Position numbers and translations under genes: made by a program
Assembly (NCBI GenBank): GCA_029248105.1
Contig: JAQWJZ010000018.1
Location: forward strand, 7,596 to 71,595
DNA from: Flavobacteriales bacterium
GTDB taxonomy: Bacteria > Bacteroidota > Bacteroidia > Flavobacteriales > UBA7312
Length of the DNA: 64,000 bases
Reading direction: 5' to 3'
Shown here: positions 35,258-58,832 of the stretch, piece after piece
Numbering within the stretch: position 1 is the stretch's first letter
How the letters are laid out: each line of letters opens with the position of its first letter
Notes under the pieces: model-generated
The model's input: only the letters and a program-made list of their open reading frames with translations
Told to the model about the DNA's origin: nothing
Database searches by the model: none

Positions 35258-35717
35258 TTAATGATTTGAATATTGGTGTTATAAACTTTTGAAGTTCTTC
35301 TGAACTAGTAGAAATAGTTTTGTTTATCAAGTCACTATCTTCTTTCATATTTAACTTGTAATCTAAAAATTGTGGTGTGCCATCTTGTACACAAAATCGT
35401 AAAAACCTCAGTTCAATATCTTCTGGATATAGATTAATTACTTTTTCTAATTTTTCTTTACCTTGTTTGAAGGCTTTGAGTTTGTCTAAAGGGTTTATTG
35501 AAAACTTACTTTGTAACATTTGCGAAACGGCATAATAGGTATATCGTAAATACTCTGTTTCAATAGAACTGTTTTCTGTTAATTCGAATAGTTTTTTTGC
35601 TGCATCTTCATCAAAAGATGCTTCAAGATACAGTTCTCTAATTTGCGAAATACTAAGCTCTTGGGCTTGGCTATTCATTAGGAAAAAGAATAATGTAATA
35701 ATAAACCAATACCTCAT
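35226..35717 (-). CDS. Hypothetical secreted protein embedded in the crt operon
   Basis: Signal peptide (…FFLMNSQAQE), helical-repeat-like. ATGA overlap with the crtB stop. Confidence 0.45.
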   Translation of the reverse strand: MRYWFIITLFFFLMNSQAQELSISQIRELYLEASFDEDAAKKLFELTENSSIETEYLRYTYYAVSQMLQSKFSINPLDKLKAFKQGKEKLEKVINLYPEDIELRFLRFCVQDGTPQFLDYKLNMKEDSDLINKTISTSSEELQKFITPIFKSLNDGRTSYSSK

Positions 35718-36553: not shown

Positions 36554-36555
36554 AA

Positions 36556-38028
36556 TTAGATAAGGTTAGATTCTACTATGTGATTTGCTACCACTTGTCC
36601 TGAAATGATAGACGGTGGCACACCAGGTCCGGGTACTGTAAGCTGACCTGTGTAGAAAAGGTTATTTATTTTCTTGTTAATGATTTTAGGTTTAAAGTTT
36701 GCCGTTTGAAGTAGCGTGTTAGCCAACCCATAAGCATTGCCCTTGTAGGCATTGTAATCGTTTACAAAGTCGTTAACGCAATAACTTCTCTTATATTCTA
36801 TATGTTCTTCAATGGATTGACCAGTATATTTTTCTAATCGTCTAAGCATAATGTCAAAATATTTTTCTCTAATTTCATCATTATCTTTTAGTCCTGGTGC
36901 AATTGGCATCAAAAAGAAGATGTTTTCTTTACCTTTAGGAGCAACAGACGGGTCTGTTTTGGATGGACAACAAACATAAAATAAGGGTTTGTTTGGCCAT
37001 TTTGGATCGGAATAAATTTCGTCTGTATGTTTCTCAATATCTTCATCAAAAAATAAGTTGTGATGAATCAGTTTGTTGAGCTTGGTATTAACGCCAACAT
37101 AAAACAAGAGACTGGAGGGAGAGAAGGTTCTTTTTTCCCAATAATCATCGTTGTAATTTCTATATTTTGGAGGAAGTAGTTTACTTTCAATATGATTGTA
37201 GTCAGCAGAACCTACCACAATGTCTGTTTTTAATATTCTTATATCTGTGACTATGGATTTTATTTTTTCATCTTCAATATTGACAGAATTTACGGCTTCG
37301 TTGGTGTGAAATTCTACACCTTGTTCTAGACAAATTTCTTTAAATGCATCAATGACTTTTCCGAACCCTCCCATAGGATAAAATGTGCCTTTTTTAATTC
37401 CAGAATAAGTCATTAGACTATATAAAGCAGGTGTTTGACTTGGGGCAGTTCCTAAAAATAAGACAGGAAATTCTAATAAAGATTTTAAATAATGATTTTT
37501 AAAATATTTAGCTACGTGATTTCTGTATGAAGTAAACACTTGCAGCTTGAAAACATTAGCAAATAATTTAGGTTTACATACCTCCAACAGAGATAGACCA
37601 GGTTCATAGACTAATTGGTTGATGCCAAAATCATATTTGAATTCGGCTTCCCTCATAAATTCTTCTAACTTTTTGGAAGAGCCTTTTTCAAAGCTTTCGA
37701 ATAACTCGCATACAGCAGACCAATCTGATGATAGCTTTATAGTTTTTTCTTGTTCGAAGATGATTTGAAAGCCCGGGTCTAACTGAGTTAAATCGAAATA
37801 GTCGCTTGCTTTTTTTCCAAATTCTGCGAAAAATTTCTCAAACACATCAGCCATCCAATACCAGCTAGGCCCCATATCAAAGGTGTATCCTTTAGCTTTA
37901 AACTGTCTTGCTCGTCCTCCTATGCTTTCGTTTTTCTCAAAGACGCTAACCTTATGCCCTTCTTTGGCAAGAAAAGCAGCGGCACTTAAACCCGAAAACC
38001 CACTCCCTATGACTGATATATTACTCAT
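36556..38028 (-). CDS. crtI: Phytoene desaturase
   Basis: VIGSGFSGLSAAAFLAKEGHKVSVFEKN dinucleotide fold and C-terminal LFYTGQLTVPGPGVP. Confidence 0.9.
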   Translation of the reverse strand: MSNISVIGSGFSGLSAAAFLAKEGHKVSVFEKNESIGGRARQFKAKGYTFDMGPSWYWMADVFEKFFAEFGKKASDYFDLTQLDPGFQIIFEQEKTIKLSSDWSAVCELFESFEKGSSKKLEEFMREAEFKYDFGINQLVYEPGLSLLEVCKPKLFANVFKLQVFTSYRNHVAKYFKNHYLKSLLEFPVLFLGTAPSQTPALYSLMTYSGIKKGTFYPMGGFGKVIDAFKEICLEQGVEFHTNEAVNSVNIEDEKIKSIVTDIRILKTDIVVGSADYNHIESKLLPPKYRNYNDDYWEKRTFSPSSLLFYVGVNTKLNKLIHHNLFFDEDIEKHTDEIYSDPKWPNKPLFYVCCPSKTDPSVAPKGKENIFFLMPIAPGLKDNDEIREKYFDIMLRRLEKYTGQSIEEHIEYKRSYCVNDFVNDYNAYKGNAYGLANTLLQTANFKPKIINKKINNLFYTGQLTVPGPGVPPSIISGQVVANHIVESNLI

Positions 38029-38036
38029 GTATTTTA

Positions 38037-38729
38037 TTAAGATTTTATGAATTCATAAAATTCATTTCTTGTTTTATTAGACTCTATAAATTCCCCCGTC
38101 AGTTTTGAGGTCTTCATAGATGTTCCTTGGTGTCCTACACCTCTACATTGTACACAATTGTGTGAGGCTTCAATCATCACGGCAACACCTTTGTTATTTT
38201 CTACAATCTTATTTATAGCGTCATGTATTCTTACAGTAAGATTCTCTTGTATAGCACCTCTTCGAGCATAATGTTCAACAATTCTGTTGAGTTTGCTAAG
38301 CCCAATAATCTCTTGATTGATTTGCGGAATGTAAGCAATGTGAGCTTTGCCCATAATAGTTTGATGGTGATGTGAACACATTGATATAATAGGAATATTA
38401 CCTTCGAAAATAATTCCATCGTATTCGTAATTAGGAAATGTAGTAATTTTTGGAAATTCGTTATATCGTCCAGCCCATAAATCGTTGACGTAGGCTTTGG
38501 CTACTCTTGTAGGAGTTTCTTTTGAGTTAGGATCGTTTTTCCAATCGCAACCCAAAGCATCCAAAAATTCCCCAAACTTGACAGCCGCTTTGTCAATCAT
38601 TTCAAGTTTTTCTTCTTCGTTGAGAGAGCCGTTAATATTTATTCCGTCTGCATATCCTATATTTCTTAGTTCAGGATTTATCTCAATTATCTGAGCTGAT
38701 GAGCCATTAATTATTTTAGTTTTATCCAT
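38037..38729 (-). CDS. folE: GTP cyclohydrolase I
   Basis: SMCSHHHQ and ASHNCVQCRGV are zinc/active-site motifs of FolE type I. Confidence 0.9.
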   Translation of the reverse strand: MDKTKIINGSSAQIIEINPELRNIGYADGININGSLNEEEKLEMIDKAAVKFGEFLDALGCDWKNDPNSKETPTRVAKAYVNDLWAGRYNEFPKITTFPNYEYDGIIFEGNIPIISMCSHHHQTIMGKAHIAYIPQINQEIIGLSKLNRIVEHYARRGAIQENLTVRIHDAINKIVENNKGVAVMIEASHNCVQCRGVGHQGTSMKTSKLTGEFIESNKTRNEFYEFIKS

Positions 38730-39138
38730 TGTATTCTACATAGTTATTTTCAGTTTCATACAATTTAACACTGTGCAAATTATTGCCAGTAGCTCGTATG
38801 TCGCTTTCTAATTCTTCATATATTTTTATGGCAATGTTTTCTGCAGTAGTAATAGTATCTTTCATAAAATCAACCTCAAGGTTAAGGTTTCTATGATCCA
38901 TTTTATCAACAATTCTACTTTTGATTATATCGCTCAACACTTTCAAGTCTATTACATAACCTGTATCCGGGTCAACACTGCCTTCAACCGTAACAAATAA
39001 GGTGTAGTTGTGGCCATGCCAATTTTTGTTTGAACACTTTCCAAATACTAGCTCATTTTTTTCATCAGTCCAATTTGGGTTGAATAATCGATGGGCAGCA
39101 TTGAATCTTTCTCGACGGATAACTTGTACGGTTTTCAT
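38722..39138 (-). CDS. 6-pyruvoyl-tetrahydropterin synthase (COG0720; Cx5HGH, PTPS-II-like)
   Basis: FNAAHRL...VFGKCSNKNWHGHNYTLFVTVEG is very close to the animal PTPS motif. The start is taken at the ATG of MKTVQV. The TTG-extended ORF to 39171 runs through the palindrome. Confidence 0.8.
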   Translation of the reverse strand: MKTVQVIRRERFNAAHRLFNPNWTDEKNELVFGKCSNKNWHGHNYTLFVTVEGSVDPDTGYVIDLKVLSDIIKSRIVDKMDHRNLNLEVDFMKDTITTAENIAIKIYEELESDIRATGNNLHSVKLYETENNYVEYNG

Positions 39139-39172
39139 TTTGTATAAACTTTCAGCGATAAAATTATACAAA
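39139..39172. promoter_or_regulatory. Palindromic operator candidate TTTGTATAA-N16-TTATACAAA (copy 1 of 3)
   Basis: tttgtataa-actttcagcgataaaa-ttatacaaa, with perfect 9-bp arms, between divergent PTPS-folE-crt and SDR-MMPL genes. Confidence 0.7.
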
Positions 39173-41940: not shown

Positions 41941-42324
41941 TTAAATCTTATCGAGTTCAGCTTTAAAAAAAGACCATAAATTTGGTGGTAGATTATCTCT
42001 TTTGAAAAAGTCGAATTGCTCATTTTCATGGTTGAGTGCGATATCATTTTCTAGTGAAATGGAGTGATAAAACCAATATTCGTCCCCGTCGTACATACAA
42101 TGATTCAAAAATTTAGGATTATCAATTTTTAAGTTAGTCTCTTCTTGTGTCTCTCTTACTACAGCAAGGGAAGGATGTTCGTCAGTTTTTATTTTACCAA
42201 CTACTGGAGTCCAAATTCCGGGATAAAAAGGATTGCTTAGTTTTCTTTTTAGCAGTAGCACTTTACTGTTTTTAAATATGTAATGAACACAATACCTCAT
42301 TTTTGGACGTTTGGGCAATACCAA
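41941..42324 (-). CDS. Nudix hydrolase
   Basis: Nudix box GKIKTDEHPSLAVVRETQEETN (Gx5Ex7REx2EE). Confidence 0.75.
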   Translation of the reverse strand: MVLPKRPKMRYCVHYIFKNSKVLLLKRKLSNPFYPGIWTPVVGKIKTDEHPSLAVVRETQEETNLKIDNPKFLNHCMYDGDEYWFYHSISLENDIALNHENEQFDFFKRDNLPPNLWSFFKAELDKI

Positions 42325-43091
42325 CTTTTTCTTTGGTCTGAAGTGGTGGTGCTTATTATTTCGTTACCATTTTCATCTTCTTTTTTACCATACACTTTAA
42401 GTTCAAATTCTGATACGTGAAAGGGGTTTTTAAAATCCTTGAGTTCAGCCCCCCCGCTGATATAGCTTCTTTGCATAATATCTTGAGTGGCAAACACCAA
42501 TTCTTTTCGCCTCTTAGAAGATAGCTTACCCCATTTTTTTTCGGGATGTATTTTGGCAGCATACAATGCTTCAGACTTGATATAGTTGCCAACGCCTGGA
42601 AAAAAACGTTGATCCATAAGGGTAGAGCAGATAGATTTGGTAGCACTCACTTTTTCTTTAAGGTAATTAAGGTGCTTATCCAAATCGTAGTCATCGTTCA
42701 ATAGGTCGAAAGTTTTGAAATGTTTGTTTTGTAATTCTTCAAGAGATAACACTCTCATTTTGCCAAACTTTCTAACATCCCTAAAAAAAAGCTCCCTATC
42801 TGAAGCGCTCACTCTAAAATGGCAATGTTTAATGTTATCTAAATTCCATCCACCTGTCATGCCTAAATGAAAGTTAAAGAAAAGCCCATTGGTTAGTGGA
42901 AGAAAAATATTTTTTCCAATAGTAAATGTAGCTTGAAAATCCTTTGAATGGTGTTTGTTTACTGTGTCAAAAACGTCAGCGTATTTTTTCTCGTAATACT
43001 CTGTCAATAAATTAAAACGTAAGTTTTTTGATCCTTCAAAAAAGCGATTGTAATAAGTGGATGCTATTTTTACCTCTGGTCCTTCAGGCAT
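42297..43091 (-). CDS. Fpg/Nei family DNA glycosylase with a zinc-less finger
   Basis: N-terminal MPEGPEV (catalytic Pro2/Glu3) and an H2TH region. The C-terminus retains only 1 of the 4 zinc-finger Cys. Confidence 0.85.
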   Translation of the reverse strand: MPEGPEVKIASTYYNRFFEGSKNLRFNLLTEYYEKKYADVFDTVNKHHSKDFQATFTIGKNIFLPLTNGLFFNFHLGMTGGWNLDNIKHCHFRVSASDRELFFRDVRKFGKMRVLSLEELQNKHFKTFDLLNDDYDLDKHLNYLKEKVSATKSICSTLMDQRFFPGVGNYIKSEALYAAKIHPEKKWGKLSSKRRKELVFATQDIMQRSYISGGAELKDFKNPFHVSEFELKVYGKKEDENGNEIISTTTSDQRKSWYCPNVQK

Positions 43092-43648
43092 TATTTTAGT
43101 ATGACGATAACTTCGTTTCTTCTATTCAAAACTTTGTAAGGAGAGTCATAAACGAGTAGTTCAAACTCATTAGCATGAGTGATATTGTATTTTTCTAGTG
43201 TAGAGATTAACTCTTGTTTTTTGCGCTTTACCTTTGCGCTGTTGGAATAACCCGAAAAACGAATAGCAGCTACCATTCGGGATTCCATTTCAATGATTTC
43301 AATTTCATTGGAATTAGGAGCAGGCAGACTTTCCATTTCATAGCGTTCTGGCATTAAAAATAGCATTTCTTTATTTTCAGAAGACAGGCGCATATTGACA
43401 GGTGAAGTCATTCCAATTTGCTCGTTTTTACTATTTCCGCCAAAAATATAATTTGCTAAAACACGAAACTGAGAATTATTGCCTGTCTGTTCAGAATAAT
43501 GACTAGCATAAATTTGAGATGGATATTCTCTAATCTCTACCGAGTCGATGGTTCGTATTATATTGTAGTTTTCAGTTTTGCTCACGTTAAAAGAAAATAG
43601 GCCGTATAGTGTTAGTATAGCTACAGTTAAAATTAGTAATTTTTTCAT
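43091..43648 (-). CDS. SOUL haem-binding family protein
   Basis: Signal peptide, then the YNIIRTIDSVEIREYPSQIYAS... pattern of the SOUL/HBP family. Confidence 0.7.
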   Translation of the reverse strand: MKKLLILTVAILTLYGLFSFNVSKTENYNIIRTIDSVEIREYPSQIYASHYSEQTGNNSQFRVLANYIFGGNSKNEQIGMTSPVNMRLSSENKEMLFLMPERYEMESLPAPNSNEIEIIEMESRMVAAIRFSGYSNSAKVKRKKQELISTLEKYNITHANEFELLVYDSPYKVLNRRNEVIVILK

Positions 43649-44175
43649 TATTGAATTTTTGTTGTTATCTCATTATCCAAAGGACTAACACCACTTTTGA
43701 AATACGCCATCAACTTTCCGTTAGGTCCTATCAAGAATTTATTGAAATTCCAAGAGACATTAAAATCGTCTAAACCATTTTTAGATTTATTCGTTAGCCA
43801 AGTGTATAAAGGGTGTTGAGCATTTCCTTTGACATCGACTTTTTCGGTTAAAGGAAATGTAACATTGAATTTACTTTCGCAAAACGTTTTTATTTCGGAC
43901 GCTTTGCCAGGTTCTTGACCACCAAATTGATTGCAAGGCACACCAAGAACAACAAGTTTGTCAGTATATTCCTGACTTAGTTTTTGCAAATCGCTATACT
44001 GAGAAGTATAGCCACAGTAGGAGGCAACGTTAACAATAAGGATGTATTTATCCTTAAAATCGGACATGCTGATTTCTTTACCATCAATAGAAGATATGGA
44101 TATATCGTGTATAGACTGTGAAAAGGATGAACTTGCCATAAGTAGTGTAATTAAAAATGTGAGAAATATTTTCAT
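43648..44175 (-). CDS. Glutathione peroxidase (Cys type)
   Basis: VNVASYCGYT, NQFGGQEPG and WNFNKFLIG are the catalytic-tetrad motifs. Confidence 0.9.
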   Translation of the reverse strand: MKIFLTFLITLLMASSSFSQSIHDISISSIDGKEISMSDFKDKYILIVNVASYCGYTSQYSDLQKLSQEYTDKLVVLGVPCNQFGGQEPGKASEIKTFCESKFNVTFPLTEKVDVKGNAQHPLYTWLTNKSKNGLDDFNVSWNFNKFLIGPNGKLMAYFKSGVSPLDNEITTKIQ

Positions 44176-44188
44176 TATTTAATGTTTT

Positions 44189-44220
44189 AAAAAAAAGTGA
44201 GAGAGTTTTACCTCTCCCAC
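44189..44220 (-). terminator. Probable rho-independent terminator of the cupredoxin-fasciclin gene
   Basis: On the minus strand, gtgggagag-gtaaaa-ctctctcac (one mismatch) is followed by T8. Confidence 0.5.
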
Positions 44221-44252
44221 CTAATTATTAAATTAACCTCAATTACTATTTA

Positions 44253-45995
44253 CTAGCGTAAATTGTATCTTTTAATACTCGTTCCGTTGGAATAAATATC
44301 TATTACTATTTTGTCTGTAGAGTTTCTGTCTACTAATTCACCTAATAGGTTTATGGTATGCAGATACTCAACGTCTTTATTATTGAAGAGTATTTCGATT
44401 GATGTTGGATCTGCAGGAATTAATACCATATCTATAATATGTACTACGCCATTGTCGGCTACAACATCAGCTTGAATAACTGAGGCCATATCAATCATTA
44501 CGCTACTTCCATCTATAGTTACAACTAACACATCATTGTTCATTGTTGGGATTTCCATACCGTCCATTAAGTCCTCTGCCAAAGCATTGTCTGCGTGAAC
44601 ATGGTGTAATAGGATTTCTGTTAAGAGTTGGATATCAGCAAGTAATTCATCTACAGCTCCTTCAGGTAATGCATCAAAGGCATCATCTGTTGGTGCAAAT
44701 ACTGTATAGGGACCATCTCCTGATAAAGTTTCCCCTAAACCAGCGGCATCAATTGCTGCTTCCAAAGTTGTATGAATTGGAGACGCTTTAATGATACTCC
44801 AAACTGTAGTGTCTACTTCTCCCATTCCAGGTAATAATATTTTATCTATTATGTGCACTACACCATTACTTGCAGGAAGATCTGCTTCTATGACTGTTGC
44901 TAGATTAATCATAACTGTCATTCCATCAATGCTAACTTCCAATTCAGTGCCGTTCAATGTTGGAACCATCATGCCATCTTCTAGATCTTCTGAATAGACT
45001 TCTCCAGAGTGAACGTGATTATATAATAAGTCAATTAGTTCATCTTGGTTTGCTAATATTAAGTCAAGTGTTCCTGGCGGCAGACCATCAAATGCTTCAT
45101 CAGCTGGTGCAAATACTGTGAATGGGCCATCACCTGAAAGTGTTTCTTGCAAGTTCGCAGCTGTAATGGCTTGATTTAGAGTTGTGTGTATAGGTGAGTT
45201 TGCAATAATGTCCATTACTGTTTGCTCATCTGTAGAAGGTAAAAGCACCATATCAATAACGTGTACAATGCCATTATCAGCTACTATATTAGCAAAAGTA
45301 ACTGTAGACATATCAATCATAATTACCTCACCGTTTACAGAAACTTCTAAAATACCTTCATTAAGAGTTTCCACTTCCATACCTTCTTCTAAGTCATCAG
45401 CAGTAACATAGCCAGGGTGTACGTGTTGAAGAAGAACTGCAGTTAGAGCGTTTTCATCATCTAATAAAGCATCTAAAGCTCCTGCAGATAAGGCATTAAA
45501 GGCTGCATCTGTTGGAGCAAATACAGTAAACGGACCGTTGCCAGAAAGATCATCAACTAAATCAGCTAAAATTACAGCTGACTCTAAAATAGTATGATCA
45601 GGTGAGTTTACTATAATTTCTACAACAGTTCCGTTTTCCCCACCTTCAACAGTTATAGAGCCTACCATACCTTGTAAAGCATGATTTCCTACAGAACAAT
45701 CGTATTCATATGTTCCCGCTAAATTAAATACTTGAGTATGTATAGTAGCTCCCATAACATTGGTTGAGGATGAGTTAAAGCTTTCTGGGTTTCCAAAGCT
45801 TTCTCCTGTGACTGAGTTTGTATTTGCATTCACATCGTGTGTTCCGCCATCGTTAATCCATACAACGGTATCACCTAATGATATAGTCAGTGAACTTGGG
45901 TTATAATAAAACATTCCCGCATTAACCTGATGAACAGTTGCGAAAGTGGTTAAAGAAATAAATGATAATATAAGTACTCGTAGTAGATGTTTCAT
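44253..45995 (-). CDS. Secreted cupredoxin (plastocyanin-like) + 3x fasciclin (FAS1) + T9SS C-terminal sorting domain protein
   Basis: The start is taken at MKHLLRVLIL (signal peptide). Cu ligands are GGTHDV...YDCSVGNHALQGM. There are three ~135-aa FAS1 repeats (GPFTVFAPTDAAF...NG.VHVID.VLLP). The ~50-aa tail resembles the T9SS CTD. Confidence 0.8.
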   Translation of the reverse strand: MKHLLRVLILSFISLTTFATVHQVNAGMFYYNPSSLTISLGDTVVWINDGGTHDVNANTNSVTGESFGNPESFNSSSTNVMGATIHTQVFNLAGTYEYDCSVGNHALQGMVGSITVEGGENGTVVEIIVNSPDHTILESAVILADLVDDLSGNGPFTVFAPTDAAFNALSAGALDALLDDENALTAVLLQHVHPGYVTADDLEEGMEVETLNEGILEVSVNGEVIMIDMSTVTFANIVADNGIVHVIDMVLLPSTDEQTVMDIIANSPIHTTLNQAITAANLQETLSGDGPFTVFAPADEAFDGLPPGTLDLILANQDELIDLLYNHVHSGEVYSEDLEDGMMVPTLNGTELEVSIDGMTVMINLATVIEADLPASNGVVHIIDKILLPGMGEVDTTVWSIIKASPIHTTLEAAIDAAGLGETLSGDGPYTVFAPTDDAFDALPEGAVDELLADIQLLTEILLHHVHADNALAEDLMDGMEIPTMNNDVLVVTIDGSSVMIDMASVIQADVVADNGVVHIIDMVLIPADPTSIEILFNNKDVEYLHTINLLGELVDRNSTDKIVIDIYSNGTSIKRYNLR

Positions 45996-46041: not shown

Positions 46042-46075
46042 TTTGTATAAATATTTTCGCTCAATGTTATACAAA
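46042..46075. promoter_or_regulatory. Palindromic operator candidate TTTGTATAA-N16-TTATACAAA (copy 2 of 3)
   Basis: tttgtataa-atattttcgctcaatg-ttatacaaa, lying between the two divergent -7 boxes (46021..46028 minus, 46081..46088 plus). Confidence 0.7.
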
Positions 46076-46080
46076 ATGCG

Positions 46081-46088
46081 TATATTTG
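46081..46088 (+). promoter_or_regulatory. -7 box TAnnTTTG for the small ORF / carH-like transcription unit
   Basis: tatatttg, 6 nt downstream of the palindrome. Confidence 0.5.
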
Positions 46089-46136: not shown

Positions 46137-46301
46137 ATGCCAAGAAAGAAAAAAAAGAAAATTTCAATAGAAGAAATCAAAAAAAGAACTCCAAAAATCA
46201 TTTTTTATACTGATAAAATGAAAATCAACTTAAAAACAATGAGTAGCTTGGATTTTTGGTTCAATAAGTACCCTAATGGAAAATATATAGTCAATGACTA
46301 A
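46137..46301 (+). CDS. Small Lys-rich ORF (54 aa) overlapping the regulator start
   Basis: MPRKKKKKISIEEIKKR.... Its stop overlaps the regulator ATG (ATGACTAA). There is no family support, so it could be a non-coding leader. Confidence 0.3.
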   Translation: MPRKKKKKISIEEIKKRTPKIIFYTDKMKINLKTMSSLDFWFNKYPNGKYIVND

Positions 46302-47175
46302 GTATAGTATAGACCAGTTTTCACAAATCACTGGTATTACTAAGTTCGTTTTACGAACTTGGGAAAACCGTTATGGATTTTTGAAAGCACAACGAACCGA
46401 TACCAAAATTCGATTTTATACTGATGAATTGTTAGTGCGTGCTCTGAATTCCAATTACCTGCTCGAAAATGGTTATAAAATATCAGCAATATCTAAATTA
46501 GCTCACGATGAAATCGCCAAAAAAGTTGATGAAATCAAAAACAGTTCTGATGACAATTCAACAGAGTCCTATTATATTGCAAAATTGATTAAGTCTGCTC
46601 TTGATTTTGATTCACATCTTTTTCACTCAACTTATGAAAAAGGGGTTGAGGAGTTAGGAATACTTGAGTTTTATAAAAACGTCTTATTAGTAGCCTTTTC
46701 TAAGATTGGAATTTTTTGGCTTACCAATAGAATAGCACCTTCGCAAGAGCATTTTCTTTCTGAACTTGTTAAACAAAAAATTGGAGCTGCTGCAGATGCT
46801 GCTTCTATGAACGATTCTTTTAAAGAAACGTGGTTATTATTCTTACCTGAAAATGAATTCCATGAAATTGGATTAATTTTTGCTAAGTTTTTACTTATAA
46901 ATAGTGGGCACGAAGTTGTTTATTTAGGAGCAAACGTACCTTACGGATCGCTTTTACAGTTGGCTGAAAAAAAGCACATTGATAATGTCTTGTTTTTCTC
47001 TGTTTCTAACACTTCCAAAAGTAATCTTGATTTTACGATTAATTATTTAGAAAAGTCTTTCCCAAAATCAACACATTATTTAGTGGCAAATAGTCTTGAT
47101 ATTAATTTCTTAACTAAGAGTCATAAAATCACAATTCTTGATAACTTAGATGATTTTGTAGGAATTATTGACTAG
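46294..47175 (+). CDS. MerR-family, B12-binding light-responsive regulator (CarH/LitR type)
   Basis: N-terminal MerR HTH (YSIDQFSQITGITKFVLRTWENRYGF). W142-x9-E152-H153 (FWLTNRIAPSQEH). E188-x-H190-x-x-G193 (ENEFHEIG) followed by a Rossmann-type B12 domain. Confidence 0.85.
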   Translation: MTKYSIDQFSQITGITKFVLRTWENRYGFLKAQRTDTKIRFYTDELLVRALNSNYLLENGYKISAISKLAHDEIAKKVDEIKNSSDDNSTESYYIAKLIKSALDFDSHLFHSTYEKGVEELGILEFYKNVLLVAFSKIGIFWLTNRIAPSQEHFLSELVKQKIGAAADAASMNDSFKETWLLFLPENEFHEIGLIFAKFLLINSGHEVVYLGANVPYGSLLQLAEKKHIDNVLFFSVSNTSKSNLDFTINYLEKSFPKSTHYLVANSLDINFLTKSHKITILDNLDDFVGIID

Positions 47176-47580: not shown

Positions 47581-47588
47581 TATATTTG
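47581..47588 (+). promoter_or_regulatory. -7 box TAnnTTTG (plus strand) ahead of the 47660..59552 gene string
   Basis: tatatttg overlapping the left arm of palindrome copy 3. Confidence 0.45.
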
Positions 47589-47618
47589 TATAACAAAAAT
47601 ACAAAATAGTTATACAAG
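47585..47618. promoter_or_regulatory. Palindromic operator candidate TTTGTATAA-N16-TTATACAAg (copy 3 of 3)
   Basis: tttgtataa-caaaaatacaaaatag-ttatacaag, in the 84-bp divergent intergenic region. A minus-strand -7 box (tatttttg, plus coordinates 47594..47601) lies in its spacer. Confidence 0.7.
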
Positions 47619-47659: not shown

Positions 47660-48121
47660 ATGGCTCATTACCAACTCCGTAAAGAACAGTTTTTAAATAC
47701 AGATATAGATACTATTTGGGATTTCGCATCATCTCCGGCTAATTTGAAAGAAATTACCCCTGACTATATGTTGTTTGACATCACTTCAAAAGACTTGCCC
47801 GAGAAGATGTATCCCGGTATGATAATCTCCTATAGAGTATCTCCTTTGCTTAATATCAAGATGAATTGGGTAACCGAAATTACTCAAGTTAAAGACAAGC
47901 ATTTTTTTATTGATGAACAACGATTAGGTCCATACAAGATGTGGCATCACCAACACTTTTTTGAAGAAAAAGACGGTGGAATTCTTATGACCGATATTAT
48001 AACCTACATTCCTCCTTTTGGAATACTTGGAGATATTGCCAACACTCTATTAATCAAAAAACAGCTTAAAGGCATTTTTGACTATCGTTTTAAAGTAATG
48101 GATGAAAAATTTAATCGATAA
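47660..48121 (+). CDS. SRPBCC (START/Bet v1-like) family protein
   Basis: 153 aa. The pattern W.F.S.P.NL..ITP...GPYK.W.H.H.F is typical of the SRPBCC proteins found next to photolyase genes. Confidence 0.7.
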   Translation: MAHYQLRKEQFLNTDIDTIWDFASSPANLKEITPDYMLFDITSKDLPEKMYPGMIISYRVSPLLNIKMNWVTEITQVKDKHFFIDEQRLGPYKMWHHQHFFEEKDGGILMTDIITYIPPFGILGDIANTLLIKKQLKGIFDYRFKVMDEKFNR

Positions 48122-48124
48122 GTA

Positions 48125-48604
48125 ATGAAACGACCTTGGAATATAATCAGCCCTCCTGTATATAGTTTAGTTACTTATGACGATGAAGGCAAAGTCAATA
48201 TGAATATATGTACATACGTTTCTGCGGTGAGTATGAAGCCTAAGATATACTCTATTGCTATTGACTATACCACTAAGACGTATAAAAATCTTGAAAAATC
48301 TTCCAAAGTGGTGTTACAATTATTAAGTGCTAACAATCTAAAGGTTATTAGAAAGTTAGGTAAAATTAGCGGCAAACTTTTCGATAAGGATCGTTATCTT
48401 AATTCATACAATTTGCTTCAGCCATGGAAAAATTATGCTGTCTTAAAGGATACCTGTGCGCTAATAGAGTTAGAAAAAAAATCTGTTGTCAATAATCATG
48501 GTGATCACGCTATTTTTTTCTTTGACGTAACAGGTTTTAAAACCATTTCTGAAAAAAATGTGCTGTCCTTTCAAGACTTAGTGGATAATAGAATAATACT
48601 TTAA
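48125..48604 (+). CDS. Flavin reductase-like (split-barrel FMN-binding) protein
   Basis: 159 aa. The N-terminal part resembles the Flavin_Reduct domain (VYSLVTYDDEGKVNMNICTYVSAVSMKP). Confidence 0.65.
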   Translation: MKRPWNIISPPVYSLVTYDDEGKVNMNICTYVSAVSMKPKIYSIAIDYTTKTYKNLEKSSKVVLQLLSANNLKVIRKLGKISGKLFDKDRYLNSYNLLQPWKNYAVLKDTCALIELEKKSVVNNHGDHAIFFFDVTGFKTISEKNVLSFQDLVDNRIIL

Positions 48605-48605
48605 T

Positions 48606-49238
48606 ATGCATCTTACTCAAGAACAAATACAACAAACACCACGCATCAAAAGGTTGAATTTAATCAATTCAATTACAGGTGTTAAACCAGCAAATTTAAT
48701 AGGAACTGTTTCTGATGATGGGCATACTAATTTGGCGGTTTTTAGTTCAATAGTCCATTTGGGAAGTAATCCTGCTCTTTTGGGATTCGTCTTGCGTCCT
48801 CAACATGAAGTGAGGCGAGATACTTATGATAATATTTTGCAGAATAAGTGTTACACTATAAACCACATTCATACAGATTTTATTGAGAACGCTCATTATA
48901 CGTCAGCAAAATTTGATAAAGATGAATCTGAATTTGATAAATGCAATTTTACTGAAGAATTTTTGTTCGACTTTCAAGCACCTTTTGTCAAGGAAAGTCG
49001 TGTTAAGCTAGCAATGCAATTAGAAGATATGTTACCAATAGAATTAAACAATTGTATGATGGTAATTGGTTCTATACAACATTTGTGGATTGACGATGTG
49101 GCTGTAGAGGATGATGGTCAAATCAATTTGGAGTTATTGAATGACGTTGGAATAGGAGGGTTAAATAGCTACTATAGGCTAGAAAGGATAGGGCAATTTC
49201 CATATGCTAGGGCTAACGAATTACCTGATTTTCGATAA
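48606..49238 (+). CDS. Flavin reductase family protein
   Basis: GVKPANLIGTVSDDGHTNLAVFSSIVHLGSNPALLGFVLRP is the Flavin_Reduct pattern. Confidence 0.75.
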   Translation: MHLTQEQIQQTPRIKRLNLINSITGVKPANLIGTVSDDGHTNLAVFSSIVHLGSNPALLGFVLRPQHEVRRDTYDNILQNKCYTINHIHTDFIENAHYTSAKFDKDESEFDKCNFTEEFLFDFQAPFVKESRVKLAMQLEDMLPIELNNCMMVIGSIQHLWIDDVAVEDDGQINLELLNDVGIGGLNSYYRLERIGQFPYARANELPDFR

Positions 49239-49241
49239 ATT

Positions 49242-49373
49242 TTGAAAAAGCCTTTGCCACATAAAATTTGTACCGTTTGTCAGAGACCTTTCTCTTGGCG
49301 AAAAAAGTGGGAAAGAGTATGGGAGGATGTTAAATACTGTAGCCAACGCTGTAGAAGAAATAAAAGTAATTAG
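49242..49373 (+). CDS. DUF2256 small zinc-ribbon protein (43 aa; absent from the ORF track)
   Basis: Translation from TTG is [42 protein letters not shown]. CxxC...CxxxC and FSWRKKWE match DUF2256. It sits 2 nt before the cryptochrome-like gene. Confidence 0.75.
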
Positions 49374-49375
49374 TA

Positions 49376-50887
49376 ATGAATAGTGTAAATATTATTTTTC
49401 CTCATCAGTTATTTCAGCAAAGTGATTTGTTAGATAATAACTTCCCTATATACCTTGTTGAGGAATACCTATTTTTTAAACACTACAATTTTCATAAACA
49501 AAAACTGGCTTTCCATAGAGCAAGTATGAAGTTTTATCAATCTTATCTTGAGTCAAAAGGCAAAAAAGTAATCTATGTTCAAGCTAATGAAACAACTTCA
49601 GACATTCGCCTATTGATACCTGAACTAATCGACAAAGGTGTGCGTGAAATACACATCATTAATCCAGTTGATGATTGGCTTGAAAAAAGATTGTCAGAGG
49701 GGGCTAAAGATATGCTTTGTACCATCTATGAAAGTCCATATTTTATTAATCTATCAGATGAATATTCAGACTTTTTTAAGGCGACCAAGAAGAAGTATTT
49801 TCAAACCTCTTTTTACATTGAGCAACGTAAAAAATTAAGGATATTAATAGATAAAAATGCTTCACCCACAGGCGGTAAATGGAGCTATGACACCGATAAT
49901 AGAAAGAAGTATCCTAAAGATAAAGAAGCGCCCAAATTCAGGCCTTTGCCGTCCAACGAATTTTATTCGGAGGCTGTAACCTATGTCAATCAGAATTTTT
50001 CTGATAATCTTGGTCAACTGTCCGATAATCCTATTTACCCCAATGATTTTGCTCAAACATCAAAATGGCTTAATGACTTCTTTGACCAACGATTTTATGA
50101 CTTTGGTATTTATGAAGATGCTATTGTAGACAAAGAACACTTTCTTAATCATAGTATTCTTACGCCCATGCTTAATGTGGGTTTAATAACTCCTGCGCAA
50201 ATTATAGATGCTGTGTTGGCTTATAGCCAGACCAATGAAATCCCCCTTAATTCCTTAGAAGGATTTATCCGTCAAATTATTGGTTGGAGAGAATTTATAA
50301 GAGGAATATATGTTGCTAAAGGTACTGAAGAAAGAAACCGTAATTTCTTTCAACATAGTCGTAAAATACCACCTTCTTTTTATGATGGCACTACAGGAAT
50401 AGTGCCCATTGACACAACCATAAAAAAGATACTAAAAACAGCTTATGCTCATCATATAGAACGGTTGATGGTATTAGGCAATTTCATGTTGTTGTGTGAG
50501 TTTGATCCAGATGAAATTTACCGTTGGTTTATGGAGTTATTTATTGATGCTTACGATTGGGTGATGGTGCCTAATGTATATGGCATGAGTCAATTTGCTG
50601 ACGGTGGACTCATGTCTACTAAGCCGTACATAAGTAGTAGTAACTATTTGAGAAAAATGAGTAATTACAAAAAGGATGAATGGCAAGATACATGGGACGC
50701 ATTATACTGGCAGTTTATAGATAAACACAGGGATGTCTTTAATAAAAACATAAGAATGAAATTTATGGTTTCTATGTATGATAAAATGTCAAGCCAAAAA
50801 AAGGAGAAATTCGTACAAATTGTAGATAATTATTTTACAACTTTGGACGTTGAATTTAAAAAAACAGAAAAGATAAAAAATGGCTAG
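49376..50887 (+). CDS. Cryptochrome/photolyase-related protein (DPRP / FeS-BCP-CryPro clade) lacking the Fe-S cysteines
   Basis: IIFPHQLF N-terminus, GWREFIRG, HHIERLMVLGNF and DAYDWVMVPNVYGMSQFADGG. There are only two Cys in the whole protein. Confidence 0.8.
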   Translation: MNSVNIIFPHQLFQQSDLLDNNFPIYLVEEYLFFKHYNFHKQKLAFHRASMKFYQSYLESKGKKVIYVQANETTSDIRLLIPELIDKGVREIHIINPVDDWLEKRLSEGAKDMLCTIYESPYFINLSDEYSDFFKATKKKYFQTSFYIEQRKKLRILIDKNASPTGGKWSYDTDNRKKYPKDKEAPKFRPLPSNEFYSEAVTYVNQNFSDNLGQLSDNPIYPNDFAQTSKWLNDFFDQRFYDFGIYEDAIVDKEHFLNHSILTPMLNVGLITPAQIIDAVLAYSQTNEIPLNSLEGFIRQIIGWREFIRGIYVAKGTEERNRNFFQHSRKIPPSFYDGTTGIVPIDTTIKKILKTAYAHHIERLMVLGNFMLLCEFDPDEIYRWFMELFIDAYDWVMVPNVYGMSQFADGGLMSTKPYISSSNYLRKMSNYKKDEWQDTWDALYWQFIDKHRDVFNKNIRMKFMVSMYDKMSSQKKEKFVQIVDNYFTTLDVEFKKTEKIKNG

Positions 50888-52127
50888 AATTATTTTTACA
50901 ACAATACTCATAGCTTTCATTTTAAGTATCGACATTTATGTATGGTCGGCGTTTAAAAGTCAAATTACAGGAAATCCAATATTTAAATATGGCTTTTGGC
51001 TCATTACTGCAATTACTATTGCTTTGATGTATTACCCAGCTATAAATACCAATATGACACTTTACCCCAATTATTTGGTAATTATTTTTGGTTTTGTGTT
51101 TACCATAATTGCATCCAAATTAGCAATGATTTTACCTTTGTTGATTGATGATGTTATTCGTCTATTTAAGTATTTGTATCAATCCATTTTTGTAAATAAA
51201 AGCTTATCTCTAGGTGGTCAGCCAATTAGCAGAATAGATTTTTTAAAAAATACAGCTTTAGGTATTGGGGCATTAACTTTTTCACTGTTTTCATATGGAA
51301 TTCTTGTAGGCAGGTTTAATTTTAAAAAACACATAGTTGATTTATCACTAAACAACTTTCCTAAAGGATCTAAGCCTTTGAAGATTGTTCAGATTTCGGA
51401 TTTGCATTTGGGTAGTTTTCAAAGAAAAGATAAGCTTTTGGAAGCGGTAGAATTAATCAATGAAGAAAAGCCTGACTTGATATTTTTTACAGGAGATTTG
51501 GTCAATAATCATGCTAAAGAAGCCGAGCCATTTGTTGACACATTAAAGCAGCTCAAATCGAAGTATGGTAAATTTGCAGTTTTGGGAAATCACGATTATG
51601 CAGACTATGTTGGTTTAGATTTAAATTCTGAAGACGGTCGTTCCAAATGGCAAAGGAATTTTGATGAGATAAAATCGCATTTTGCAAATTCGGATTTCAA
51701 ACTTTTACTCAATGAAACCGAGATGCTTAGTCTGGATGGATTAGAAATAAATGTAGTCGGAGTAGAGAATTGGGGCGATGGTAGGTTTTCAAAATACGGT
51801 GATTTAGAAAAAGCCATGCTATCGGCTAAAGAAGGTATTCCAACTTTTTTACTTTCTCATGATCCTACACATTGGACTAACAAGGTTATTCCTTTCTCTA
51901 AACAAGTAGACTTACAATTAGCAGGGCATACTCATGGAATGCAGTTTGGTATTGAAATTGGCGGCGTAAAATGGAGCCCTTCGCAATGGAAGTATAAATT
52001 TTGGGCTGGTCTTTACCAAAACAAAGAGCAATACCTTTACGTCAATAGAGGTATAGGTCATTTGGGTTATCCTGGAAGAGTAGGAATTATGCCTGAAATA
52101 ACTATTTTAAATATTCAATCAACCTAA
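50880..52127 (+). CDS. Membrane-anchored metallophosphoesterase
   Basis: N-terminal TM segments, then VQISDLHLG, TGDLVN, GNHDY and GHTHG motifs. Confidence 0.85.
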   Translation: MARIIFTTILIAFILSIDIYVWSAFKSQITGNPIFKYGFWLITAITIALMYYPAINTNMTLYPNYLVIIFGFVFTIIASKLAMILPLLIDDVIRLFKYLYQSIFVNKSLSLGGQPISRIDFLKNTALGIGALTFSLFSYGILVGRFNFKKHIVDLSLNNFPKGSKPLKIVQISDLHLGSFQRKDKLLEAVELINEEKPDLIFFTGDLVNNHAKEAEPFVDTLKQLKSKYGKFAVLGNHDYADYVGLDLNSEDGRSKWQRNFDEIKSHFANSDFKLLLNETEMLSLDGLEINVVGVENWGDGRFSKYGDLEKAMLSAKEGIPTFLLSHDPTHWTNKVIPFSKQVDLQLAGHTHGMQFGIEIGGVKWSPSQWKYKFWAGLYQNKEQYLYVNRGIGHLGYPGRVGIMPEITILNIQST

Positions 52128-52133
52128 CAACTT

Positions 52134-54515
52134 ATGAAGTATTACTTATCCTTAATTTTTACGTGTCTTATTTTTTATTCAAATGCCCAGACTGTGAGGG
52201 TATATGGTAGCGTTAAAAATGCCCTAAATAATGAGGCAATTCCTTTTGCAAATGTTATAATTGATGGGACTTCAAAGGGAGCAACCACAGATATTGATGG
52301 AAATTTTGAATTGCTTGATATTACTCCTGGTATATATAACTTTAAGTGTAGTTACATCGGCTTTAACACGGATTTAAAAACAGAGATACAATTAACTCCA
52401 AATAAGAATTTAAGATTAGATTTTTTCTTAACAGAAAACGCTCAAATTATTGATGAGGTTCAGGTTACTGCCAATACGTTTAATAAAACAGAAGAAAGCC
52501 CTACTAGTTTAAGGACAATTAATGCATCTGAAATATTAAGAAGCCCAGGAGGAAATCGTGATATTTCAAAGGTAATAGCCAATTTACCAGGCGTTTCTAG
52601 TTCGCCATCTTTTAGGAATGATATTGTAATTCGTGGTGGCGCACCCAATGAAAATCGTTTTTTTCTCGATGGTGTTGAAATACCTAACATCAATCACTTT
52701 GCCACACAAGGGTCTTCAGGTGGTCCGGTAGGCATTTTGAATGTCAATTTTATTAGAGAAGTAGATTTTTATTCAGGAGCTTTTCCTGCAAATAGAGGAA
52801 ATGCTTTGAGCTCTGTAATGGAACTTAAACAAATTGAAGGAAGTGATGAAGAATTGAGCGCATCATTTATGTTGGGTTCAAGTGATGCGGGTTTAACGAT
52901 AAGCACTCCTTTATCAGAAAAATCTACTATGTTGTTGTCAGCAAGACGTTCCTATTTGCAGTTTTTATTCAAAGCACTGCAATTGCCTTTTTTGCCTACT
53001 TACAACGATTTGCAATTTAAGTATACTCACAAGCCAGATGCTAAAAATCAATTTAATATTATTGCTTTGGCAGCTATTGATGAATTTACACTTAACCCAG
53101 AAGCTAATGAGGGTATCGATGACCTTCAACAACTTGCTCAAAATGAATATACGCTGAATAACTTGCCCGTAAATGAGCAATGGAATTATACCCTTGGTGG
53201 AACATGGAAACGTTTTTTTGATAACTCTAATTTATTTGTTGTATTGAGTCGTAGCCACCTCAATAATACGGCAGTAAAGTATGCTGACTATGCAGACGAA
53301 ACATCGGAAAAACTATTAGATTATGAATCTCAAGAAATAGAAAATAAAGCCAGAATAGAGTATAATTTTAGAAGAAGTGATGTTAAATTTAACGTAGGGT
53401 TAAATCTAGAAGATGCTACCTATTTAAATTCAACAAATCAAACTATTACTTCAGGAACTTCTATTATTCCAGTTCTAGTGGAAGCAGATTTGCATTTTAT
53501 TAAATACGGTGCTTTTGCTCAATTGAGTAAGACTTATTTGGTTGATAGGTTAGTAACATCTTTTGGTTTTAGAATAGATGGGAATAGTTTTACAGAGAAT
53601 TCAACAACTCCTAATTTTTCACCTCGACTCTCTTTGGCATATAATCTTTCACAAAAAGCAAGTGTAAACGCTAACTTAGGGAGGTATTATCAGTTACCAG
53701 CTTATACAATTTTGGGGTATGGGTTAAATAATAATTTCGAAAATCAAGATGTTGAATATATTCAATGCGACCATGCCGTCTTTGGTTTAGAATTCAACCC
53801 TTCTAATTACAGTAAAGTAACGCTTGAGACGTTCTATAAGCAATACGATAACTATCCTTTTTCTATTATTGATAGTATTTCTTTAGCCAATTTGGGTGGT
53901 GACTTTGGTGTAATCGGTAACGAGGATATTTCTTCCATCTCTAAAGGCAGAAGTTATGGGGTAGAGTTTTTAGCTCAACAAAAACTAAGCTCATCGGTTT
54001 ACGGTATTATGTCTGTGACTTATTATAGAAGTGAGTTCGAAGATAAAAATGGTGAGCTTATTCCTTCGGCTTGGGATAATCGTTTTATTTTTAATATGAC
54101 TGCCGGTAAAAAATTCAAAAGAAATATTGAACTAGGGCTAAAATTCCGTTACTCTGGCGGAGCACCTTATACTCCTATCGATTTAGTTACCTCCAGTGAT
54201 AAAGGTGTTTGGGATAAAAATCGAAGAGGAGTGTTAAGTTACGATGCTTTGAATACTGAACGTTTAAACAATGTTCATGGTGTTGACTTGCGATTGGATA
54301 AAAAATGGTATTTCAACAAGTGGAGTTTGAATGCCTACATAGATGTGGAAAATTTATATAACTTCAAGATACAACTGCCATCCGAAGTAGGTATTGACCC
54401 TGAAATTGGCAATCAAGTATATACAGCACAAGACAGTAATCAATATTCTCTTTACGAAATTATTAATGAGTCAGGAACAGTACTTCCTAGTATTGGGCTA
54501 TTAATAGAATTTTAA
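52134..54515 (+). CDS. TonB-dependent receptor with an N-terminal carboxypeptidase-regulatory-like domain
   Basis: Signal peptide, VYGSVKNA...DGNFEL (CarbopepD_reg), a plug region, a long beta-barrel and the terminal ...GLLIEF. Confidence 0.85.
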   Translation: MKYYLSLIFTCLIFYSNAQTVRVYGSVKNALNNEAIPFANVIIDGTSKGATTDIDGNFELLDITPGIYNFKCSYIGFNTDLKTEIQLTPNKNLRLDFFLTENAQIIDEVQVTANTFNKTEESPTSLRTINASEILRSPGGNRDISKVIANLPGVSSSPSFRNDIVIRGGAPNENRFFLDGVEIPNINHFATQGSSGGPVGILNVNFIREVDFYSGAFPANRGNALSSVMELKQIEGSDEELSASFMLGSSDAGLTISTPLSEKSTMLLSARRSYLQFLFKALQLPFLPTYNDLQFKYTHKPDAKNQFNIIALAAIDEFTLNPEANEGIDDLQQLAQNEYTLNNLPVNEQWNYTLGGTWKRFFDNSNLFVVLSRSHLNNTAVKYADYADETSEKLLDYESQEIENKARIEYNFRRSDVKFNVGLNLEDATYLNSTNQTITSGTSIIPVLVEADLHFIKYGAFAQLSKTYLVDRLVTSFGFRIDGNSFTENSTTPNFSPRLSLAYNLSQKASVNANLGRYYQLPAYTILGYGLNNNFENQDVEYIQCDHAVFGLEFNPSNYSKVTLETFYKQYDNYPFSIIDSISLANLGGDFGVIGNEDISSISKGRSYGVEFLAQQKLSSSVYGIMSVTYYRSEFEDKNGELIPSAWDNRFIFNMTAGKKFKRNIELGLKFRYSGGAPYTPIDLVTSSDKGVWDKNRRGVLSYDALNTERLNNVHGVDLRLDKKWYFNKWSLNAYIDVENLYNFKIQLPSEVGIDPEIGNQVYTAQDSNQYSLYEIINESGTVLPSIGLLIEF

Positions 54516-54516
54516 G

Positions 54517-55425
54517 ATGGCAGAAAAAGTACTTATTACAGGAGCAAGTGGCTCATTAGCAATTCGGGTAAAACGAATACTCATATCTCAAGGCTATGAA
54601 GTTATTGCATTATCGACCAATAAGCGAAAGGTAGATAATAAGGACGTCTTTTATTGGAATATTTCTGAAAAATTAATTGACAAAAATGCATTGTTAGACT
54701 GTCAGCATATCATTCATCTTTCAGGTTATAACATCATGAAGCCTTGGACGGAAAAAAACAAGGACTTAATGTATGAAAGTAGGATAGATGCGGCTGATTT
54801 ATTATATGAACGGTGTAAATCTTTAGGAGTAAATCCAAAAACATTTGTTTCCGCTTCAGCACTTGGCTTCTATGGTATTGATGCCCAGGGTATCCAATCA
54901 GAAGAAGACTCTCCTGCTGACGATTGGCTCTCTAAAATGTGTGTTGATTGGGAGTCTGCTGCTCAACAATTTGAGACACTAGGCAGTAGAGTAATTCAAA
55001 TGAGAATATCTCTGCTTTTAAGCAAAGATGCTGGTTTTTTACAGCCTACAATTTTATCTATGCGCTTGGGTATGGGTGTTGTGTTTGGAAATGGAATACA
55101 ATCCATTGAATGGATACATATAGAGGATGCAGCAAAATTCGTATATTATGCCATCGAGAATCGGTCGGTCAGTGGAGCTTATAATATGGCCTCAAAACAA
55201 AAATGGACTCAATATGACTTTATGAAATTTATAAAGTCTAAAGTAGCAAAGTATGCTATTCTCATAAAATTGCCATTATTTGTTTTAAGATTGATTTTTG
55301 GGGGAAGAAGTATTATCCTTGTGGGTGGCTGCTCACTCTCAGTTGATAAGCTTTTAAGCACTGGATTTAAGTACGATTATCCTACTTTAGAAAGTGCTAT
55401 TAATAAAGAATTAATGAAGTCATGA
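54517..55425 (+). CDS. TIGR01777-family (YfcH/SDR39U1-like) epimerase-fold protein
   Basis: VLITGASGSLA Rossmann start, ~300 aa, C-terminal DUF1731-like ...GFKYDYPTLESAI. Confidence 0.8.
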   Translation: MAEKVLITGASGSLAIRVKRILISQGYEVIALSTNKRKVDNKDVFYWNISEKLIDKNALLDCQHIIHLSGYNIMKPWTEKNKDLMYESRIDAADLLYERCKSLGVNPKTFVSASALGFYGIDAQGIQSEEDSPADDWLSKMCVDWESAAQQFETLGSRVIQMRISLLLSKDAGFLQPTILSMRLGMGVVFGNGIQSIEWIHIEDAAKFVYYAIENRSVSGAYNMASKQKWTQYDFMKFIKSKVAKYAILIKLPLFVLRLIFGGRSIILVGGCSLSVDKLLSTGFKYDYPTLESAINKELMKS

Positions 55426-58830: not shown

Positions 58831-58832
58831 TA

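Follow-up and report, generated by a model that had tools for sequence, protein, structure and literature searches.

Does the MerR-type regulator encoded amid the carotenoid and photolyase genes of an uncultured marine Flavobacteriales bacterium sense light through vitamin B12, as CarH does, and at which DNA sites would it act? We addressed this question for a stretch of 64,000 nucleotides (assembly GCA_029248105.1, contig JAQWJZ010000018.1, positions 7,596 to 71,595 of the forward strand; hereafter "the window"), in which a carH/litR-like open reading frame (ORF) with an ATG start (46294..47175, + strand) translates into a protein of 293 amino acids (aa). An earlier reading of the same DNA, referred to below as the original prediction, took this protein for a CarH/LitR-type photoreceptor-regulator with both signature motifs intact. 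Our results suggest that it is likely a class-I CarH/LitR-type photoreceptor, i.e. an autoregulated, adenosylcobalamin (AdoCbl)-dependent dark repressor released by light; its B12 binding and light response are predicted from homology.

The presence of a MerR-type helix-turn-helix was confirmed by the Pfam family MerR_1, which matches residues 4-70 with an E-value of 1.5e-13. This winged-helix DNA-binding domain (46303..46503, + strand) contains the recognition helix R21-T-W-E-N-R-Y27, which shows one R-to-N change with respect to RxWERRY, the recognition-helix motif of CarH and CarA (PMC9304148). It is followed by a four-helix-bundle subdomain (residues about 90-170, 46561..46803, + strand), delimited with the Pfam family B12-binding_2 (PF02607, residues 95-165, 26.5 bits, over the gathering score of 23) and an AlphaFold2 (AF2) model, and bearing the motif G139-xx-W142-x9-E152-H153. 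The remainder of the protein forms a Rossmann-like B12-binding subdomain (residues 179-293, 46828..47172, + strand), recognised from the AF2 model and Foldseek searches, with the motifs E188-x-H190-xx-G193 and G212-xxx-P216. The codons of W142 (46717-46719), of E152-H153 (46747-46752) and of H190 within E188-F-H190-E-I-G193 (46861-46863) lie exactly where the two signature motifs had been placed.

Comparison with all PDB sequences using phmmer revealed CarH/LitR of Thermus (TtCarH; 5c8d, 3whp) as the best match, with an E-value of about 1e-12 and an identity of about 20%. W142, E152, H153 and H190 align on TtCarH W131, E141, H142 and H177 (TtCarH numbering is given here as the 3whp chain index minus 5), as the original prediction had expected, and E188-F-H190-E-I-G193 aligns to E175-R-H177-E-I-G180; a family profile gives the same register for the four residues. 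The AF2 model, calculated from an alignment of 18 sequences and of moderate confidence (mean predicted local distance difference test score, pLDDT, of 75), comprises the winged helix-turn-helix, four helices (90-104, 107-121, 123-139 and 149-170) and a five-stranded beta/alpha Rossmann unit (179-293). Its sole low-confidence segment is the loop that carries W142, as would be expected of a model of the apo form. When this model was used as a Foldseek query against the PDB, ranks 1-32 were all TtCarH (E-values down to 5e-14), and the top 50 matches consisted of TtCarH and the light-responsive cobalamin-binding domain (CBD) of CtMerR (8jbt). The superposition on the TtCarH CBD extends over about 200 columns, with a TM-score (target) of 0.84 and a root-mean-square deviation of 2.9 Å.

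Database searches yielded 950 detectable homologues, some of which carry the JGI name "MerR family, light-induced transcriptional regulator", and a hypothetical protein from a marine Flavobacteriales metagenome-assembled genome is 100% identical. Among 34 orthologues with 41-90% identity only 42 positions are invariant, including R21-T-W-E-N-R-Y27, G139, W142, E152, H153, E188, H190 and G212, and G193 is kept in 33 of the 34. A cobalamin ligand would account for the invariance of W142, E152, H153 and H190 over this range of identity, which is otherwise difficult to explain, and the predicted chromophore-contacting core is intact. Three of the four elements of the light-responsive CBD signature (GxxW, EH, GxxH and GxxxP; PMC11796333) are present, namely G139xxW142, E152H153 and G212xxxP216. 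Two TtCarH glycines behave differently: G160 is replaced by S171, and G192 is kept as G205. Judged from its sequence, the protein belongs by most defining features to class-I CarH/LitR, and fails in the distal B12 motif, in PF02310 and at the NCBIfam equivalog cut-off.

These failures are part of a series of observations that weigh against the assignment. The classic B12 motif has the form D/ExHxxG-x41-SxT/V-x22-27-GG (PMC9304148), and the position of its Ser, 41 residues past G193, is taken by F235, with Phe in 33 of the 34 orthologues. The Ser one residue out of register, S236, is variable (S in 21, A in 6 and L in 3 of the 34), and a GG pair, looked for in the last 70 aa of all 34, occurs in none. 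The Pfam family B12-binding (PF02310) matches residues 186-242 with only 18.8 bits, against a threshold of 32.1. The similarity in sequence to TtCarH extends no further than about residue 237, and a PDB profile search with the 18-sequence alignment ended at the same residue, leaving the C-terminal 55 residues unaligned; the comparison of the Ser and GG elements therefore rests on the register and on the absence of GG. The GxxH element of the light-responsive signature reads N187xxH190 in the carH protein and in 28 of the 34 orthologues, with G in 4. The salt bridge R176-D201 of the TtCarH dimer is replaced by F189-N214. TtCarH H132, the second His of the bis-His adduct of the light state, corresponds to L143, which is invariant. 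The best NCBIfam match is the equivalog NF052513 ("HTH-type transcriptional repressor CarH"), but its 72.9 bits fall far short of the cut-off of 400, and the protein is therefore a member of a distant clade of the CarH family and no close orthologue of the characterised proteins. Genes for B12 uptake or adenosylation were not recognised by Pfam across 24.9-63.3 kb of the window, and an Rfam scan of the whole window at gathering thresholds gave no match to a cobalamin riboswitch or other RNA. Finally, two points concern the proposed operator described below: it is an inverted pair, unlike the tandem direct repeats of characterised CarH operators, and CarH is put forward as its binder from co-occurrence and half-site similarity. 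The claim of two intact signature motifs thus stands for the short motifs and falls for the extended classic motif; likewise, the MerR and B12-binding_2 profiles match as anticipated while B12-binding does not reach its threshold, and the Rossmann-type domain said to follow the motifs appears as five beta/alpha units in the AF2 model, without the Ser and GG elements. With Ser and GG lost, the pocket must depart from the Thermus model on the side of the nucleotide tail, and the losses of H132 and of R176-D201 imply the same for the chemistry of the light state and for the oligomer interface, respectively.

Loss of the distal Ser and GG, together with the sub-threshold PF02310 score, also suits a protein with a CarH-like fold that senses light without B12 or indirectly, either as a CarA-like constitutive repressor relieved by an antirepressor or, similarly to class II LitR with its short LOV protein, as an effector that acts for another photoreceptor. 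Two proteins described below, the co-transcribed one of 54 aa and the 153-aa protein unk153, are conceivable partners: the conserved small ORF (sORF) appears translationally coupled to carH, and the SRPBCC-like gene nearly always adjoins it. Moreover, B12 dependence is known to have been lost in CarA (PMC9304148) and in LitR of classes II-V (PMC9758184). However, CarA is devoid of the Trp of Wx9EH and class II LitR of the Rossmann domain, both of which are present here, the four putative B12-contacting residues are invariant, the complete CBD superposes on TtCarH, and the sORF product differs from CarS, an acidic DNA mimic, in being basic, and no structural relative of it was detected. We therefore regard a B12-independent mode of action as unlikely.

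Two formal classifications of the protein were tried and discarded. Filing as CarA-type was rejected on account of W142, which is present and invariant, and of CarS/CarQ/CarR-like genes, none of which was recognised in the island. Filing as class II LitR was rejected in view of the full five-stranded Rossmann unit that is predicted and of the absence of a LOV/PAS gene adjoining carH in the window.

The replacement of the GG and Ser elements throughout the clade bears on yet another explanation, as these elements form part of the wall of the nucleotide-tail pocket of classic B12 domains: the protein might bind a cobamide, with a different signal or chromophore, and either sense how much B12 is available or employ a cobamide or an upper ligand other than the standard one (e.g. 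pseudocobalamin or methylcobalamin). Pseudocobalamin is abundant in surface oceans, and the absence of H132, from which it follows that the light-state chemistry must differ from that of TtCarH, agrees with such a scenario. Nonetheless, the putative regulon is composed of light-damage and carotenoid genes, not of genes for B12 uptake or B12-dependent metabolism, and the residues W142, E152 and H153, which would recognise the adenosyl moiety on the upper face, are intact. We give this explanation marginally less credence than the B12-independent one, and retain an AdoCbl-dependent photoreceptor as the preferred reading.

The second part of the question concerns the DNA site. The window contains three exact copies of a 32-bp palindrome, TTGTATAA-N16-TTATACAA, against 0.01 expected, and all three are located between divergent gene groups, in promoter regions. 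The first putative operator (O1, 39140..39171) separates the PTPS-folE-crtI-crtB-...-crtZ operon (- strand) from SDR-MMPL (+ strand). The second (O2, 46043..46074), an exact match at the place where a palindrome copy had been reported next to carH, separates the fasciclin operon (- strand) from sORF-carH (+ strand), ends 220 bp upstream of the carH ATG and is proposed to be autoregulatory. The third (O3, 47586..47617) separates unk150 (- strand) from the unk153/flavin-reductase/photolyase/crt operon (+ strand). A relaxed search of the window (up to 3 mismatches) added four matches, which is the chance level, so that only the three exact copies stand out.

The palindrome (up to 2 mismatches) was found in 27 of the 28 species-level genomes with a carH orthologue, which belong to uncultured marine Flavobacteriales, Cryomorphaceae or Crocinitomicaceae. 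The arms, but not the spacer, are conserved across the resulting 48 sites; only symmetric T- and A-tracts stand out in the spacer. The sites track carH, crtI/B, fasciclin, SDR, GSHPx, unk153 and the sORF through extensive rearrangement of gene order: the O2 position is kept in loci L001-L016, with other arrangements in most of L017-L028, and O3 is kept in L001-L009 and L016. The suggestion of autoregulation is supported by the palindrome upstream of sORF-carH, which is kept in 27 of the 28 related genomes and in most of them directly precedes carH or its sORF. A metagenome scan with an exact 34-mer frame revealed 120 loci, in 35 of which homologues of island genes occur no more than 1.5 kb from the site (SDR 11, sORF 10, fasciclin 9, PTPS/folE 8, carH 8, crtI 7 and DPRP 5), and the O1 arrangement recurs in loci L044, L076, L101, L108, L111, L119 and L146. 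The other 85 matches are not beside recognisable regulon genes; many of them lie on GC-rich or gut contigs and are therefore consistent with chance in a very large database.

The TnnACA of the footprinted CarH repeat, 5'-nnnnTnnACAn-3' (PMC9304148), agrees with the half-site TATACA. The two 11-bp sites form an inverted pair with 21 bp between their centres, i.e. two helical turns, and lie on the same face of the helix. Characterised CarH operators consist of tandem 11-bp direct repeats, and plasticity of CarH operators is documented (PMC9304148); tandem TnnACA copies were sought in the operator spacers and none was conserved.

Promoter elements lie close to the operators. Bacteroidetes promoters have a -33/-7 consensus, on which our calls of -7 boxes are based; since they differ from other promoters, the built-in sigma-70 scan was set aside and TAnnTTTG was counted directly. 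At O2 a Bacteroidetes-type -7 box for sORF-carH, TATATTTG, is read from the sequence at 46081..46088 (+ strand), 6 nt downstream of the palindrome, and the divergent fasciclin operon has its -7 box at 46028-46021 (- strand). O1 is accompanied by TAACTTTG at 39179-39186, and at O3 TATATTTG at 47581-47588 overlaps the left arm. Among 96 flanks TAnnTTTG starts 4-7 nt past an arm in 21, against about 0.3 expected, and overlaps the outer edge of an arm in 25, and several sites have a TTTG or TTTC -33 element in mid-spacer. The 32-bp site extends from roughly -50 to -19, with the -33 box inside it. As the operator encloses or abuts the core promoter elements, its geometry fits a repressor; MerR-type activation, which takes place from between -35 and -10, does not suit it.

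Classical MerR activators, like many unrelated dimeric regulators, typically bind inverted repeats, and known CarH sites are tandem direct repeats; the palindrome might hence serve a different regulator, or CarH might act there as a MerR-style activator, with its own operator, if any, elsewhere. The 85 metagenome matches away from recognisable regulon genes agree with this alternative. Against it stand the fit of the half-site to TnnACA, the joint occurrence of palindrome and carH in nearly all related genomes, the position of the site around the -33 box, and the fact that Pfam found no other DNA-binding protein encoded in the island. On balance this explanation, like the B12-independent one, appears improbable, and we favour CarH as the repressor that acts at the palindrome.

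Between O2 and carH, downstream of the -7 box at 46081-46088, lies a sORF (46137..46301, + strand) that encodes a basic, Lys-rich protein of 54 aa (MPRKKKKKISIEEIKKRTPKIIFYTDKMKINLKTMSSLDFWFNKYPNGKYIVND). Its stop overlaps the carH ATG by 8 nt, an arrangement that is predicted to couple the translation of the two genes. The sORF is kept in 22 of the 28 loci (tblastn, down to 42% identity), is represented in 32 protein clusters, all annotated as "hypothetical", and always lies beside a palindrome, even where it is unlinked from carH. An AF2 model of its product shows an alpha-beta-beta-alpha-beta unit (pLDDT 73), for which Foldseek retrieved no PDB match below an E-value of 0.1.

By homology with TtCarH, the regulator would work as follows. 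In the dark the C-terminal domain would bind AdoCbl with H190 as the lower axial ligand, W142, E152 and H153 of the helical bundle would cap the adenosyl group, and the holo-protein would oligomerise. Two of its MerR-type DNA-binding domains could then contact the inverted TATACA/TGTATA half-sites of the 32-bp operator, an occupation that a two-fold-symmetric dimer or tetramer would naturally allow. Bound to the operators, the positions of which are seen directly in the DNA, the holo-protein would block RNA polymerase at the three divergent promoter regions, because the -33 element lies inside the operators and the -7 box borders on them or overlaps with them. Ultraviolet, blue or green light would cleave the Co-C bond, the oligomer would dissociate, and the regulon would be derepressed, presumably including crtB/I/Y/Z, folE, PTPS, photolyases/cryptochromes, oxidative-damage genes, the 54-aa sORF and carH itself (negative autoregulation). 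A cultured flavobacterium, Dokdonia MED134, provides external support by analogy: its crtB, crtI, a grouped MerR-family regulator gene and photolyase/cryptochrome genes are light-induced (bioRxiv 10.1101/2023.12.25.573297).

The surroundings of carH form a light-protection island and bear out the carotenoid and photolyase setting that had been described for it. Within 12 kb there are genes for crtB, crtI, a crtZ-like hydroxylase and lycopene cyclase, as well as three of the photolyase family, and the linkage of carH to carotenoid and photoprotection genes is kept in the 28 genomes. Three sets of genes, identified with Pfam, are putative targets. The operon under O1 (34256..39138, - strand) comprises PTPS, folE, crtI, crtB, unk162, a NUDIX (Idi-like) gene and a crtZ-like hydroxylase gene; SDR and MMPL are divergent from it on the + strand. 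The operon divergent from O2 (41941..45995, - strand) encodes a fasciclin/cupredoxin protein, glutathione peroxidase, a SOUL haem-binding protein, Fpg glycosylase and a NUDIX protein. Downstream of O3 (47660..59552, + strand) follow unk153 (SRPBCC-like), two flavin-reductase-like genes, a DPRP cryptochrome/photolyase gene, a metallophosphoesterase gene and a TonB receptor gene, and further within the same interval genes for an epimerase/DUF1731 protein, a class-I photolyase, a crtI-like protein, a carotenoid-synthesis protein and lycopene cyclase; these ORFs are on the same strand and tightly spaced, from which we infer the extent of their co-transcription as one or more operons.

Several members of the island deserve separate mention. 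The operon under O1 is led by folE (GTP cyclohydrolase I) and PTPS (38037-39138, - strand), a placement that suggests light-induced supply of a pterin/folate-type cofactor, e.g. for the antenna chromophores of photolyases. The fasciclin gene (44253-45995, - strand), the first of its operon, encodes a protein of secreted type in which three fasciclin domains accompany an N-terminal cupredoxin domain; the gene has internal DNA repeats (families D1/D2) spaced at about 410 bp, and its family is among those most often adjoining the palindrome. Directly downstream of O3, unk153 (47660-48121, + strand, 153 aa) shows a weak Polyketide_cyc/SRPBCC hint (E-value 0.1) and is a neighbour of carH in most of the 28 related genomes; it could be a regulon member that binds lipids or carotenoids. 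On the opposite strand unk150 (47165-47575, - strand, 136 aa, ATG at 47575) converges on carH with an 11-nt overlap with its 3' end and starts 10 nt from O3; it is kept in L001-L008 and L016 and lies beside palindromes in metagenome loci L067 and L104. Pfam assigned no significant family to the sORF, unk150, unk153 or unk162. The metallophosphoesterase gene and that of a CarboxypepD_reg/Plug TonB-dependent receptor (50880-54515, + strand) are inserted in the photolyase/carotenoid string, and their linkage to carH is kept in many related genomes.

In low-GC marine metagenome contigs (L075, L078, L080, L089, L092 and L109) the palindrome is followed by a secreted protein, about 193 aa long and YceI-like by eye only, and in L071, L072 and L091 it precedes a 429-aa protein with, again by eye only, a PAS-like N-terminus followed by a multi-pass membrane region; both are possible further members of the regulon that are absent from the window. 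Just upstream of the island, and without a palindrome, are a Dps/ferritin-like gene (30577-31053, - strand) and a DUF255 thioredoxin-like gene (24962-27058, - strand), which are possibly related to oxidative stress.

Taken one step further, the data would describe a distinct CarH sub-type of marine Flavobacteriales, with an inverted-repeat operator embedded in -33/-7 promoters, a remodelled pocket and interface, and an obligatorily co-regulated, translationally coupled 54-aa basic accessory factor, which may be a co-repressor, a cobamide-loading chaperone or a modulator of the light state. As a joint claim this proposal is tentative, and we think it somewhat doubtful that all of its parts hold together. 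The current understanding is not overturned by any of these findings, as the family, the mechanism and the plasticity of operators are all established. Surface-ocean Flavobacteriales are probably unable to make B12. If the preferred reading is true, these abundant bacteria tie their sunscreen and DNA-repair response to B12, which links B12 supply to marine light tolerance; if the sub-type exists, a large photoprotection regulon is under CarH in uncultured surface-ocean bacteria that depend on exogenous B12. The conserved 32-bp operator provides a handle for predicting the light regulon in metagenomes, and a CarH with a symmetric operator and a different light-state chemistry could serve as a green-light optogenetic part. 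Among the papers that could be searched, we found none that links CarH to Bacteroidota, and literature queries on the palindrome words and on flavobacterial CarH returned nothing relevant.

The CarH photoreceptors characterised to date come from Thermus, Bacillus, Myxococcales, Streptomyces and one acidobacterium. TtCarH (PDB 5C8A, 5C8D-F, 3WHP) possesses the same three modules as the protein described here, i.e. the MerR winged helix-turn-helix, the four-helix bundle with Wx9EH and the Rossmann domain with the lower-axial His, is likewise linked to carotenoid genes and has a TnnACA-type half-site that overlaps the upstream promoter element; its operator, however, has three tandem 11-bp direct repeats, whereas here an inverted pair with centres 21 bp apart is found in promoters of the Bacteroidetes -33/-7 type. 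The CarH proteins of Myxococcales (CarHMx, Cystobacter CarH) and Bacillus megaterium, which are AdoCbl-dependent dark repressors of crt genes, share RxWERRY, Wx9EH and the B12 motif, but differ in their tandem 11-bp repeat operators and in the full classic B12 motif, and CarS/CarA/CarQRS-type partners are absent here. CtMerR of Chloracidobacterium thermophilum and other "SignatureFinder" proteins, distant relatives of the MerR-CBD type, were predicted from GxxW/EH/GxxH/GxxxP, and their response to green light was demonstrated afterwards (PMC11796333, the main text of which has no occurrence of "Bacteroid" or "Flavobacter"); the CBD of CtMerR (8jbt) is also a structural match, with the glycine of GxxH being Asn in most members of the present clade. 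The class II LitR proteins of Pseudomonas (PplR/PmlR) control a light regulon with photolyase, cryptochrome-like and folE genes (PMC9758184), which resembles the one proposed here in content, but they have the helical bundle only and a short LOV partner, whereas the carH protein retains a complete CBD.

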